A stretch of DNA of 64,000 bases from Escherichia phage vB_EcoM_VR26, in the sequence record NC_028957.1, one strand, 5' to 3'. The notes beneath the pieces are model-generated. The model did no database searches and was not told the DNA's origin. It worked only from the letters and a program-made list of their open reading frames with translations. Shown one piece after another: positions 27,354-36,053 of this stretch (its first letter is position 1; each line of letters begins with the position of its first letter). The position numbers and the translations under genes are program-made.

Positions 27354-28033
27354 CCCTCCATAGGGAATTCTAGATATACTTGGGCATTAACGCGGATTTC
27401 ATTGGTAATATTTTTAACACGGTCAGTGTTACGAGATACACGACCAAACCAACGCCAGCCATTGCGCACTGTCTGGGAACCAGTATGCCAGGTATGACAA
27501 TTAAACTGCAGGAGTGTGCGGTCAGGAGCTTCCCATTGCTCTAATTCACCTGATTCAATTTTAGTCAGAACTTCTTTATGCCATTGGCGATAAATCAATT
27601 CACCTTCCGGGATTTCACTAAAGGTAGCTTCGCCTGTAGCAAAATGGGTAGGACACACATCAGCGTTAACAAGACCAAGAATGTGTTCAGACATATAGCG
27701 AGGATTGTCATAATCTGGTTGACCCGCAGTAATAAAATGTTGTCCAGTTGGAATGGGTGGACGCGGAACATCATCATGATGATAGCCAGGGATAGCTGGA
27801 TACCAACCCGGCATTAACATATGCACACGTGAATCAAACACAACATGTTGATTAGTCCAATCAATTGGGAGATTGGCAATAAAGCTACGAGTGATTGGGC
27901 CACCATTATCCCAAGCAAAACTCAAATCACAGTTAAAGAACATTGGTTCATTTTTGATTTGGTCATTTTGTACGTTATGTGCAAAACCACCTACTGCACG
28001 AGCTTGACTATTAAAAGTTTTAGGACCGTTCAT
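27347..28033 (-). CDS. hypothetical protein (228 aa); possible 2OG-Fe(II)-oxygenase/cupin-like
   Basis: HHDD ... about 95 aa ... HTWHTG ... RNGWRW could be an HxD...H...R metal triad; weak. Confidence 0.5.
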   Translation of the reverse strand: MNGPKTFNSQARAVGGFAHNVQNDQIKNEPMFFNCDLSFAWDNGGPITRSFIANLPIDWTNQHVVFDSRVHMLMPGWYPAIPGYHHDDVPRPPIPTGQHFITAGQPDYDNPRYMSEHILGLVNADVCPTHFATGEATFSEIPEGELIYRQWHKEVLTKIESGELEQWEAPDRTLLQFNCHTWHTGSQTVRNGWRWFGRVSRNTDRVKNITNEIRVNAQVYLEFPMEGW

Positions 28034-28060
28034 AATATTTTCCTCATTGATTGTGGGACC

Positions 28061-28090
28061 ATTATGTCATAGCCCCATTTGGTTGTACAC
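28061..28090 (-). promoter_or_regulatory. T4-type early promoter
   Basis: GTGTAC -18- CATAAT. Confidence 0.45.
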
Positions 28091-28092
28091 AC

Positions 28093-28743
28093 TTATTTTT
28101 GTCTATTATAATATTTCAATTCAGCGGCGCGACGTCTTTCCATTGCTTCGTCACGAGAATCACCATAGTAAAGTTGGATTTCTTTATGATTAACAGTAAT
28201 ATATGATATCCATTTACCTCTGTCTTTTCTAAACTTGACACCTGTAATTGGACCAGGTGAATCTTTTCGGGTATCCTGGTCAAATGACTGTATTGATGAT
28301 GAAGCCCATTCGCAAGTTTCTTTACTGTATAGCTTACATGAATTTATCCGATTAATGCTTGTACCTGCTGGACGAATACCCATATCTTCAACAAAATTCA
28401 AATAACCAGTTTTTCCCTTTGGTAGCCACCTATCACATATTTGTACACCAGCGCCACCATACTGCTTCCAACGATGATGGTTAGGATTTGTACACCTTTC
28501 AATCATGGCAGCATACGATGAATATGTAGGTTTGTCAGAAATAAATGAATAATGATATTTCTGACAGCCGCATGATTTGGTTTTACCTGATTTTATACGA
28601 GCGGCGGCTGTGACAAACTCTTTACCACAATGACAAATACAATTCCATTTAGTAGAAACTCCAGCGGTTTTATATGCTACCGAAACAAATTTGATTCCAT
28701 TAATAATTTTACCAGTCAAATCTTCTAATGGTCTTCCCATCAT
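28093..28743 (-). CDS. HNH homing endonuclease with zinc ribbon and C-terminal AP2-like DNA-binding domain
   Basis: WNCICHCGKEF...KSGKTKSCGC then ERCTNPNHHRWKQYGGAGVQICDRW core, then KFRKDRGKWISYITVNHKEIQLYYGDSRDEA AP2-like tail. Confidence 0.75.
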   Translation of the reverse strand: MMGRPLEDLTGKIINGIKFVSVAYKTAGVSTKWNCICHCGKEFVTAAARIKSGKTKSCGCQKYHYSFISDKPTYSSYAAMIERCTNPNHHRWKQYGGAGVQICDRWLPKGKTGYLNFVEDMGIRPAGTSINRINSCKLYSKETCEWASSSIQSFDQDTRKDSPGPITGVKFRKDRGKWISYITVNHKEIQLYYGDSRDEAMERRRAAELKYYNRQK

Positions 28744-29705
28744 TCATCCTTTTTGAATGGTTTAATTAAATGCTGGTTAGCCTTAAAACGTTTAATATAA
28801 TCGTCATGACCTAAAGCATTATACATACTTATAATTTTACCATAATTTTCATATGCGAAGGTGCGGAACCATCCAGAAGTAATGGAGGTGCAGACTTTTT
28901 CCAGAGCCATATGGAAGCTATGGCTTGCAGGGATAATAAAATCATTAGGAACCTGTGAACGCTCCAGAGCGAGTACACATGCTTCTTCATAAACCCCTGC
29001 CAGTTTAATAACATCAGGGAGTGCTTCAAATTTTTCGCGTGAGGTCATGACTTCTGAATCATCCTTCATATAGAACTTATATGCGGGCTTATCAGCAAGC
29101 GCCACGGCCTCGTGGATGGAGTCATGGTCAAGGGTATAGATTGTATCATTAAAGAAAGTTTTCTTGCCCACGTCTAGTTTAGGGTGGCTATATGACAGTG
29201 TTTCTGCCTGGCGTTGTTGCATAATTTTCTGCAGTTCATCATTAAGAACAACACCCTTATTGCGAAGGTAATTAATATGACTCATGGTCTTCAGGAAGAA
29301 TGGATTGTTCTTCAGGTAACGATGAGATAATTTAATTGCCAGACAAATATCAGGAGTCGCCCAGTAAAAACCTGTAAGACGGTCCTTTTTAATATGATTT
29401 TCAGCATATTTCAGGAGACGATAACTTGAGGTGAAATCTTCGTCTTGAAGCTCGCCAGTAATTTCTCGTACGTTGGTCAGGGCACGGACAATATAAGCTT
29501 CAAAATAGGTTTCTTTGCCATTGTACATACATTTAAAAGCTTGGACATCAGGGTTATCCACAGGAACATGAGCACCGAACATACGTGCTTTAAAGTGGTT
29601 CCATGAGCCTTGGTCGGCAATGAAATCCCAATCAGAGTTTTCAATTTTCTGACTTTCAATCAGACCAGCGTTATGTAATGCACGAGAACCAATAACTAAC
29701 ATCAT
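28740..29705 (-). CDS. hypothetical protein (321 aa); weak nucleotidyltransferase-like N-terminus
   Basis: LVIGSRALHNAG...SDWDF loosely resembles GS...DxD (spacing longer than canonical). Confidence 0.5.
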   Translation of the reverse strand: MMLVIGSRALHNAGLIESQKIENSDWDFIADQGSWNHFKARMFGAHVPVDNPDVQAFKCMYNGKETYFEAYIVRALTNVREITGELQDEDFTSSYRLLKYAENHIKKDRLTGFYWATPDICLAIKLSHRYLKNNPFFLKTMSHINYLRNKGVVLNDELQKIMQQRQAETLSYSHPKLDVGKKTFFNDTIYTLDHDSIHEAVALADKPAYKFYMKDDSEVMTSREKFEALPDVIKLAGVYEEACVLALERSQVPNDFIIPASHSFHMALEKVCTSITSGWFRTFAYENYGKIISMYNALGHDDYIKRFKANQHLIKPFKKDE

Positions 29706-29733
29706 AATATTTTCCTCATTAGTAAAGACGAGT

Positions 29734-29886
29734 TACTTCATATTTTCCAAGTGCCGATTTTTTCGCTTCAATTCGTGAGGCAGCAAGATTGGCGGCCTCT
29801 AGTGAAGAAAATTGAACCACTTGAGAAGTATTCTGTCTTACTCCACCTTGCGGGTGAGTGACAAAAACAATAAGAACATTATACAT
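29734..29886 (-). CDS. hypothetical small protein (50 aa), below ORF-track cutoff
   Basis: Own translation MYNVLIVFVTHPQGGVRQNTSQVVQFSSLEAANLAASRIEAKNRHLENMK; preceded by same RBS cassette GAGGAAAATATT-ATG as the 321-aa gene. Confidence 0.35.
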
Positions 29887-29914
29887 AATATTTTCCTCAT
29901 TAGTTGACGAGATA

Positions 29915-34681: not shown

Positions 34682-35339
34682 ATACCTTGTCGGGGTTCCA
34701 CCTGCAAGGCAAGTGTTCAAAATAGGGTGCGCCGTGAATACGACCACGTTGAACAAAGCCGTCATCTACTTTCATAGCAAGCAGGATGAAGTCCATAAGA
34801 CCCTGATTGATTGGTATTTCAAATTTCGTAGATTTAATATCTAATTTTTTAACTATGGAACTTATGTCATGAAAGAAAAACCATTCACCATTTATATGGT
34901 CCTGATTATAAATGCTGTGCATATATTTTTCAAGTTCTACTGCATCCTGGGAATATCTAAATGATACTATTTTAAAACTTTTAAAAGGTGAAAATGTATT
35001 TGCTGTTATAGCTCTAACATCGGGTTCTATACTTCTTCCTATTTTATAATAATTAGGATTTGTAGTGTCTACCATTATGTATACAAAAGCTTGTCGATAA
35101 CTTTTTTCTATGTCAAATTCATCTTTAAATTTCAAAAGATTTAGGGCAGCAGTCCTACAAAATACTCTCCATATCGACGAGCGTTTAGCTTCGGTCATCG
35201 AAAAGAATTTTTTCTTATCTATGATTTTAAGAAAAGCCACCTTTTCAATTAGTTCTTGTGTTATTTCAAAATTACCATGGTATATTAATCCAGCTTTTAT
35301 AGCCAAATTAATTTGGTCCCAGTCTACATCACTTCTCAT
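34680..35339 (-). CDS. GIY-YIG-like (T5orf172-type) domain protein
   Basis: FVYIMVDTTNPNYYKIGRS ... GEWFFF fits the GIY-YIG/T5orf172 pattern; adjacent to the tRNA genes. Confidence 0.55.
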   Translation of the reverse strand: MRSDVDWDQINLAIKAGLIYHGNFEITQELIEKVAFLKIIDKKKFFSMTEAKRSSIWRVFCRTAALNLLKFKDEFDIEKSYRQAFVYIMVDTTNPNYYKIGRSIEPDVRAITANTFSPFKSFKIVSFRYSQDAVELEKYMHSIYNQDHINGEWFFFHDISSIVKKLDIKSTKFEIPINQGLMDFILLAMKVDDGFVQRGRIHGAPYFEHLPCRWNPDKV

Positions 35340-35358
35340 AATATTATTCTCATTAATT

Positions 35359-35435
35359 TGGTCGGGGTGAAAGGATTCTAACCTTTAACCTGCGGTTTAG
35401 AGGACCGCTACTCTATACAATTGAGTTACACCCCG
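35359..35435 (-). tRNA. tRNA-Arg (anticodon UCU)-like, 77 nt incl. CCA
   Basis: Hand-folded cloverleaf: acceptor CGGGGTG/CACCCCG, anticodon stem GCGGT/ACCGC, loop CCTCTAA, 3' ACCA; atypical D- and T-loops (no GG, TTAGAAT) and C33. Confidence 0.5.
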
Positions 35436-35439
35436 TGTT

Positions 35440-35514
35440 TGGTGGCCCTTGCTGGTTTCGATCCAGCTACCTATCAGTTATGAGCTGACAGCTCTCCCAT
35501 TGAGCTAAAGGGCC
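35440..35514 (-). tRNA. tRNA with CAU anticodon (Met or lysidine-Ile type), 75 nt incl. CCA
   Basis: Hand-folded: acceptor GGCCCTT/AAGGGCC, D-stem GCTC/GAGC, anticodon loop CTCATAA, T-stem GCTGG/CCAGC, 3' ACCA. Confidence 0.7.
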
Positions 35515-35521
35515 TTAATTA

Positions 35522-35941
35522 TTAACTTGACCATCCCCAACCTTCGGAAGGACCATCGTAGTGTACACAAATATCAGGTGAAATATTAAAATTGGCTTCG
35601 TCCGAAGAAAAAACACCCAACTTTTTACCAAACTCACTGAAGCAGAATTGTTCGCCGCCTGGAGCCCAAACATCTTCAAATAAAACAGTGAATAGCCAGC
35701 CAGCAATTAAATCTGCATCAAATTCTGTTACACCTGAACACATTTCATATAACTCGTCATCACAGACTGTAGCCACGATATGGGCCAAATGACTTTCAGA
35801 TTTTAACCAGATGCGAATTAAATTACCATCAAAACAATTGTAGTTAATTTCGGATGGCTGGCAGTTATAAAATACTTCTGTAGCGATTTCTGGATTTTCC
35901 CAGGTTTCGTCGTTAAAATTGATAAGAATAGGAGTAATCAT
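35522..35941 (-). CDS. hypothetical acidic protein (139 aa)
   Basis: ORF track. Confidence 0.5.
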   Translation of the reverse strand: MITPILINFNDETWENPEIATEVFYNCQPSEINYNCFDGNLIRIWLKSESHLAHIVATVCDDELYEMCSGVTEFDADLIAGWLFTVLFEDVWAPGGEQFCFSEFGKKLGVFSSDEANFNISPDICVHYDGPSEGWGWSS

Positions 35942-36053
35942 ATTTTCCTCATTAGTTGATTATTCTATTATGAAAGGCTCTTTGAGGGAAGAACCTTTGG
36001 TAATAGAGGGTACTTATTAATAATAACACACAACTCTTAAAGCATATTACTTG

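Follow-up and report, generated by a model that had tools for sequence, protein, structure and literature searches.

The 64,000-nt stretch of Escherichia phage vB_EcoM_VR26 analysed here (sequence record NC_028957.1; hereafter the window) belongs to a VR7-like Gaprivervirus, a T4-like phage, and is 97.7% identical to vB_EcoM_VR7 across 27-37 kb. This part of the window is a hyperplastic region spanning, in this order, the lysozyme gene e, nudE, e.2, the tRNA genes, ip and 57B. The genes of the e-57B stretch all lie on the minus strand and are mostly ORFans, and the region contains many insertions and deletions (indels) among the relatives VR7, phage 212, SP18, MN01 and EAWsc9. A short translation-initiation motif, ATGAGGAAAATATTATG, is reused here in front of conserved open reading frames (ORFs). 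Indels and replacements in relatives end in the motif or at its 5' edge, which bears out the proposal of a first-pass annotation that cassettes are exchanged at short conserved junctions. These comparisons suggest that the reused ribosome-binding site (RBS) probably also acts as a short homology for cassette exchange.

The motif consists of a GAGG(A) Shine-Dalgarno (SD) sequence, an A/T-rich 8-nt spacer and an ATG, and the TAA or TGA stop codon of the upstream gene often abuts it or lies inside it. The exact 17-mer occurs three times in the window, always on the minus strand, before genes encoding 228, 321 and 55 amino acids (aa) (copies 1-3, Table 1); it is not a single-copy string. A fourth site, before a 139-aa gene, reads ATGAGGAAAATATG; it has 13 nt in common with the 17-mer and lacks 'ATT', and its SD-ATG spacing is 5 nt versus 8 nt at copies 1-3. 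A fifth, degenerate copy (ATGAGAATAATATTATG) precedes a 219-aa gene. At all five sites the ATG that ends the motif is the start codon of the gene, 5-8 nt downstream, in ORFs kept in other phages; a GAGG(A) at such a distance from the start of a real, conserved gene (8 nt at copies 1-3, 5 nt at copy 4) is a bacterial SD translation-initiation region. The first-pass annotation had read a single string with a 'cta' prefix before the first four of these genes. The string is exact at the 228-, 321- and 55-aa genes and a variant at the 139-aa gene, the prefix is present at three sites and replaced by 'tca' at copy 1, and the gene it gave as 50 aa is 55 aa long.

Among the genes behind the motif, orthologues of the 228-aa gene are annotated in VR7, SP18, JS98 and others, and copy 1 is kept before them in VR7, MN01, EAWsc9 and JS98, with one T>C change in 212 and SP18. 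The 321-aa protein matches DUF7277/DUF7275 (E 4e-74). At copy 2, a 13-nt intercistronic junction, the motif directly adjoins the stop codon (TAA) of the 55-aa gene, and the SD, the spacer and the ATG of the 321-aa gene follow. The 55-aa gene is kept in 31 phage records. Thirteen records, from different genera, have the 139-aa gene, and the leader and motif of copy 4 are also present in Dhakavirus IME341. The 219-aa protein has weak GIY-YIG-like matches (MUG113, T5orf172), and its gene adjoins tRNA-Arg and tRNA-Met on their downstream side; among the compared relatives, only VR7 has it. In T4, the position directly 3' of the tRNA genes is held by the SegB homing endonuclease.

The matches are not confined to the SD hexamer, as the identity between copies spans 16-21 nt. 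Copies 2 and 3 share 21 nt (ACTAATGAGGAAAATATTATG), forming perfect direct repeats around the 55-aa gene with a period of 181 nt, and also have a further imperfect CTCGTC block in common; copies 3 and 4 share CAACTAATGAGGAAAATAT. Chance in random sequence is ruled out, as 100 dinucleotide-preserving shuffles contained no copy of exact ATGAGGAAAATATTATG, and a 14-mer search of the window with up to two mismatches gave 6 matches versus 1.7 expected. We also compared the motif with the RBSs of a composite genome made of the VR7 flanks and the window (~270 called genes), using a position-weight model trained on its 29 genes with GAGG-N8-ATG. The spacers of these genes are A/T-rich; AAAATATT occurs four times, AAAACAAA three times and the others once each. 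The model expects 0.5-0.8 copies of AAAATATT, and the probability that any spacer reaches four copies is ~0.003-0.017. Chance under this RBS-only model is largely ruled out, and reuse of the motif exceeds the generic-RBS expectation, with an excess that is only moderate. The unusual part is the clustering of three of the four AAAATATT copies inside 1.9 kb, together with the extension of identity to the 5' side.

Elsewhere, the motif behaves as an ordinary initiation signal. The core TGAGGAAAA lies upstream of at least 16 genes in the VR7/composite genome, all on the minus strand, the home of most early and middle genes in VR7. These include gene 44 (TGAGGAAAATATATG), which has TGAGGAAAATAT in common with the motif, and alc (TGAGGAAAATATTATG), which is ~75 kb distant and has the same 16-mer. 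In an IMG/VR scan, the exact 17-mer was found in 83 stretches, before dozens of unrelated genes, on T4-like contigs and others. The motif is primarily a translation-initiation region close to the phage's own early-gene RBS consensus, and the IMG/VR scan indicates that the string is mostly a generic strong RBS of AT-rich phages, a result that is by itself silent on recombination. In the same scan, exact ATGAGGAAAATATTATG precedes at least four small, unrelated ORFs located directly 3' of tRNA genes (loci L012/L058/L077, L013, L022/L035/L081 and L039, on contigs of T4-like size, ~161-175 kb, L077 being a 10,989-bp fragment). The stretch just 3' of tRNA genes may be another ORF-exchange slot behind this RBS.

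The evidence for exchange comes from the segment between the early-promoter leader and the 321-aa gene, where relatives carry four allelic states that represent all combinations of two small ORFs. JS98 has orf123-motif-55aa-motif-321aa, in the order leader-ATGAGGAG...-orf123 (79 aa)-cTGAGGAAAATATTATG-55aa-aATGAGGAAAATATTATG-321aa. In MN01, an orf123-like 76-aa gene replaces the 55-aa gene and is followed by the motif and the 321-aa gene; window homology with MN01 breaks at 29718/9 and picks up again at 29883, and two-piece matches spanning ~438 nt point to the same state in TH40, TH55 and UPEC07. The window and VR7 lack orf123 and have leader-motif-55aa-motif-321aa, a state suggested also for VR20, TH44 and P8 by two-piece matches with spans of ~375 nt. 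PSD2001 and RZ have leader-motif-321aa. We assembled the joint that loss of the 55-aa gene should produce (leader, one motif and the 321-aa gene) and searched with it, matching ~300 Gaprivervirus and Dhakavirus records in all. The joint has a single contiguous match in PSD2001 (96.9%), RZ, DK-13 and pEC-M719-6WT.2, and alignment confirmed it in PSD2001 and RZ, where the 55-aa cassette is exactly absent. Every joint among the four alleles lies inside TGAGGAAA (ATATTATG) and leaves no scar.

Homology between the window and SP18 breaks at 28046/7, and homology with 212, SP18 and EAWsc9 breaks at 29899/29900. On the 5' side of copy 1, the window and MN01 have a promoter, JS98 has orf121, and SP18 and PSD2001 have a 74-aa gene whose TGA stop is the TGA of the motif and whose left joint sits in the -35 box. 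The 66-aa gene of SP18 also stops at the motif's own TGA. The 139-aa unit is absent from SP18 and 212, and MN01 and EAWsc9 have an 89-aa gene at that place. No new genomic context was found for the 55-aa gene, which keeps its place beside the 321-aa gene in both Gaprivervirus and Dhakavirus; Citrobacter phage Ci1 has a homologue that is 44% identical and lacks the motif. For the 139-aa gene, too, no new context was found, and it remains in the tRNA region across genera. These data suit local deletion or replacement better than long-range movement of cassettes.

A promoter scan and a pattern listing place promoter-like sites, which are consensus matches only, upstream of both copy 1 and copy 3, at a distance of 13-14 nt. 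At copy 1, a 9-bp stem-loop overlaps the -10 box (fold -13.1 kcal/mol, z -1.2), and at copy 3 an 8-bp hairpin lies upstream of the -35 box (whole-segment z -2.3). The strong stem-loop upstream of copy 4 (-17.6 kcal/mol, z -4.4) was equalled in stability by none of 200 shuffles; no acceptable -35 box was found 16-18 nt from its -10-like CATAAT. In the window, this -10-like box is predicted to drive the 139-aa gene and the tRNAs, and in SP18 and 212 it would drive tRNA-Met directly. Neither promoter nor stem-loop was found at copy 2, where the fold has a z of +0.3 and the centroid is fully open. More generally, the window has a promoter family (e.g. GGGATAgtgTATAATTATCCC) with two leader classes, one of the form ...ATCAACTAC-TGAGGAG/A..., which includes the motif copies under study, and one of the form ...ATACTGAGTTACCAAA...GGAGAATAAAATG.

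Table 1 Positions of the motif copies, neighbouring genes and associated features in the window
Feature	Position	Strand	Context
Motif copy 1, ATGAGGAAAATATTATG	28031..28047 (17-mer 28047-28031)	-	initiation region of 228-aa gene (27347-28033)
Early-promoter-like site TGTACA-17-CATAAT	28054..28089 (predicted promoter 28089-28061)	-	TG before second hexamer; 13 nt upstream of copy 1
216-aa ORF	28093-28743
321-aa gene	28740-29705	-	behind copy 2
Motif copy 2 in 21-nt repeat ACTAATGAGGAAAATATTATG	29703..29723 (17-mer 29719-29703)	-	junction of 55-aa and 321-aa genes
55-aa ORF cassette	29719..29886	-	bounded by both 21-nt repeats
Motif copy 3 in second 21-nt repeat	29884..29904 (17-mer 29900-29884)	-	initiation region of 55-aa gene
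Early-promoter-like site TGTACA-17-TATCAT	29943-29915	-	upstream of copy 3; consensus match
8-bp hairpin ATCACAaggaTGTGAT	~29987-29968	-	upstream of -35 box of copy 3 site
Early-promoter-like site, then leader tatctcgtcaacta, then copy 3	29915..29987	-
12-codon mini-ORF	29930-29968	-	behind strong AGGAGG SD
Tandem family of small paralogues (65-96 aa)	29990-31258
43-nt junction repeats	30218-30260, 30455-30497, 30662-30704, 30953-30995		between tandem paralogues; include 3' gene end and TAAGGA RBS
SP18-like stretch (1.6 kb)	31923-33496		e.4 to e.6 homologues
219-aa gene	34680-35339	-	behind degenerate copy
Degenerate copy ATGAGAATAATATTATG	35337..35353	-	directly 3' of tRNA-Arg; initiation region of 219-aa gene
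tRNA-Arg	35359-35435
tRNA-Met	35440-35514
Indel unit: leader AATCAACTA, copy 4 and 139-aa gene	35515..35961	-	between tRNA-cluster -10-like box and tRNA-Met
Motif copy 4, variant ATGAGGAAAATATG	35939..35952	-	initiation region of 139-aa gene (35522-35941)
Stem-loop with overlapping -10-like CATAAT (35972-35967)	35964..36007	-	upstream of copy 4
GGAGAATAAAATG, exact matches	13568-13580, 14154-14166, 33500-33512, 36619-36631	-	second initiation cassette
16-nt leader ATACTGAGTTACCAAA, exact copies	13587-13602, 14175-14190, 33520-33535, 34047-34062	-	leader class two

From these observations, a mechanism can be proposed for the RBS as a recombination joint. The motif is an early-type initiation region of T4-like phages, with a GAGG(A) SD, an unstructured A/U-rich 8-nt spacer and AUG, and at three of four sites (in part at copy 4) it makes up the 3' end of a cassette of predicted early promoter, stem-loop and leader. 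As near-identical direct copies lie 0.2-2 kb apart amid dispensable ORFans, they may also serve as short homology patches. The phage's highly active replication and recombination machinery could use a pair of copies to delete the cassette that they enclose, through crossover, single-strand annealing or slippage, and the same machinery could re-insert or replace it. An in-register exchange inside the motif would restore a working stop-SD-start junction, and recombinants would therefore stay viable. Copy 2 has neither promoter nor stem-loop yet bounds indels, which suggests that no more than the RBS tail is needed for a joint. We infer from the comparison of relatives that homology at the motif guided these events, rather than selection merely keeping their products, and likewise in which direction the events ran.

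Several observations weigh against this proposal. The motif is near the phage's GAGG-type RBS consensus, so its identity could be partly convergent; selection leaves breakpoints at gene boundaries under any mechanism, and many other junctions in the region carry breakpoints too. The 139-aa unit carries the motif inside, and its ends, near the tRNA promoter, show only AATAAT microhomology. The insertion of the 216-aa ORF (28100-28749) has neither end in the motif, and in the swap of orf123 and the 55-aa gene the left joint has only 8-10 nt in common (AATGAGGAAA). On the supporting side, an upstream-context switch in any relative was seen at 3 of 3 testable motif-bearing starts versus 7 of 28 others (Fisher p ~0.03, by hand), a crude comparison of only 3 sites across 8 non-independent genomes. 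The support is comparative, with no recombination intermediate observed.

In a rival explanation, the motif would have no recombination role and would be just an optimal early-gene RBS on which genes converged, with homology-independent illegitimate recombination followed by selection for complete RBS-ORF fusions. Such convergence would explain the 17-mer before unrelated genes in unrelated phages, non-T4-like contigs included, the 16-mer at distant alc and TGAGGAAAATAT at gene 44, the 0.5-0.8 copies that the position-weight model already gives, and the retention of the motif before the 321-aa and 228-aa families whatever the upstream context. We nevertheless consider it rather unlikely as the whole explanation. 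Four identical spacers among 29 genes are improbable under the model, three of them lie inside 1.9 kb, and identity runs 5' of the SD, over 21 nt plus the CTCGTC block at copies 2 and 3. At least three independent events left a perfect, scarless single copy, and crossovers between the SD and the -10 box have been physically demonstrated in RB49/phi1. A tentative possibility, and one compatible with a recombination role, is that conservation past the SD reflects a putative translational operator for RegA or another RNA-binding regulator that co-regulates early genes. RegA binds unstructured A+U-rich sites that carry a 5' poly(A) tract and the AUG (rIIB, AAAAUUAUGUAC; gene 44, AAAUUAUGAUU; SELEX, aaAAUUGUUAUGUAA; PMC3014915), and the motif, which reads GGAAAAUAUUAUG, matches this loose description. 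In addition, VR7 encodes regA, its gene 44 (orthologue of the classic RegA target) begins TGAGGAAAATATATG, and copy 2 is predicted to be unstructured. The resemblance, at sequence level only, is weak evidence as RegA sites have no strict consensus; VR7 45, rpbA and regA, other orthologues of RegA targets, have quite different initiation regions, and an operator would leave the motif-bounded indels unexplained.

It is very improbable that the motif is a dedicated site, recognised by a site-specific recombinase or a homing endonuclease, for integron-like cassette movement. The repeat-bounded ORFs do look integron-like, an analogy already made for the promoter early stem-loop (PeSL) elements discussed below, and both the region and the genome contain GIY-YIG and HNH nuclease genes. 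However, the VR7 genome tables list no integrase or recombinase, an inverted-repeat structure is absent from the motif, the joints occupy variable positions inside it, and the same string is the ordinary RBS of core genes 44 and alc. An integron-type system in particular is ruled out, as VR7 has no annotated integrase and the motif is unstructured, with no attC-like site. A broader form of the preferred reading, the RBS as a recombination joint, would make the bare stop-SD-spacer-start junction, with no need of a promoter or stem-loop, the preferred standard adapter of T4-like phages for gain, loss and exchange of promoter-less ORFan cassettes in an operon. We regard this generalisation as speculative and quite doubtful. 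If true, it would describe a recombinase-independent, integron-like layer of exchange, finer-grained than PeSLs, and could explain the exact copies after tRNA genes and before unrelated ORFans across Tevenvirinae.

Other features of the region are also variable. The 216-aa ORF, whose start overlaps the stop of the 321-aa gene (ATGA), is named 'restriction endonuclease' in the VR7 annotation and has no Pfam match. Compared with MN01 and EAWsc9, the insertion is almost exactly the size of the ORF; at this place SP18 has an unrelated 74-aa gene. The ORF behaves like a free-standing selfish nuclease gene rather than a motif-bounded cassette. The 43-nt repeats of the tandem family, which had likewise been put forward as exchange junctions, do bound an indel: EAWsc9 lacks one tandem unit (30200-30450), and copy number therefore appears to vary by unequal exchange. 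The 1.6-kb stretch from the e.4 to the e.6 homologues matches SP18, 212 and MN01 at 91-95%, and VR7 has 174 nt instead; the window phage therefore combines VR7-like with SP18-like segments in a mosaic. The 12-codon mini-ORF upstream of copy 3 is a remnant of a 109-aa gene (JS98 orf124, SP18 gp135) in which the first codons are fused to the 3' end, and the early promoter of the following gene lies in this 3' end. GGAGAATAAAATG is a second initiation cassette in repeated use, with four exact copies versus 0.2 expected, and usually stands behind leader ATACTGAGTTACCAAA and an early promoter with a stem-loop over its -10 box. It fits the strong consensus for the RegB endoribonuclease, GGAGRAYARAA, and the GAGG motif does not, so RegB-sensitive and RegB-resistant RBS classes may coexist. 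A RegB site (GGAG/U core) is ruled out for the motif itself, which has GAGG and no GGAG.

The closest known systems are the PeSLs of the T4-type phages RB49/phi1, T4/PST and KVP40/nt-1, which mediate modular shuffling (Arbiol et al. 2010, PMC2839356; Comeau et al. 2014, PMC4122927). A PeSL ends on its 3' side in an SD and a start codon, and the joints of mini-circles were placed in the interval from the -10 box to the SD/ATG (PMC2839356). The elements described here are likewise located in a hyperplastic region directly upstream of ORFans, have, at some copies, a predicted early promoter of sigma-70 type and a stem-loop on or next to its -10 box, end in SD and ATG, and bound indels and replacements between close relatives. 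Such changes lie beside every copy in comparisons with VR7, 212, SP18, MN01, EAWsc9, PSD2001, RZ and JS98. The resemblance is uneven, as copies 1 and 3 match both the -35 and the -10 consensus, copy 4 has only the -10-like CATAAT, and copy 2 has no match, and the stem-loop scores follow the z values given above. As judged from these features, copies 1 and 3 appear to have the tested PeSL characters and copy 4 has them in part. In contrast to the full PeSL of ~100 nt, the conserved piece here is only the SD-spacer-ATG tail of 16-21 nt, and copy 2 is a pure intercistronic junction that still bounds indels. Of the products expected from mini-circle excision, the predicted chromosomal deletion joint was found here (PSD2001, RZ). 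No PeSL description specific to VR7 was found in the literature searched, and Gaprivervirus and Dhakavirus were not among the phage groups analysed in PMC2839356 and PMC4122927.

The motif also resembles T4 early initiation regions and RegA operators (gene 44, rIIB; PMC3014915) in its GAGG-type SD, its A/U-rich unstructured stretch and the poly(A) running into AUG, although those sites have no fixed sequence and an operator role here is putative; it differs from RegB-type sites by lacking GGAG. T4 recombination can proceed with homologies under 50 bp (Singer et al. 1982, as cited in PMC2839356), and the direct repeats here are likewise shorter than 50 bp and would be used by the phage's own machinery with no dedicated recombinase. 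Unlike in T4 short-homology deletion, the repeat is itself a functional regulatory element, and the products therefore keep intact expression signals. Integron cassettes (attC/attI) are similar in that promoter-less ORFs are gained and lost in an expressed array at repeated junctions, but here there is no integrase and no structured attC-like site, and the junction is the RBS itself. As expression signals probably double as recombination joints, new gene combinations would arrive ready for expression. The locus thus offers a nucleotide-resolved natural case of accessory ORFan turnover in T4-like phages, with four combinatorial scarless alleles at one place. It is of use in annotating hyperplastic regions and in predicting which junctions are unstable in T4-like phages that are engineered or meant for therapy, and it points to places where cassettes could be inserted. 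PeSL-type shuffling as now understood is unchanged by this tidy and unsurprising illustration, one more instance of the modular rearrangement known from T4-type phages (PMC2839356, PMC4122927), in a group outside those papers.

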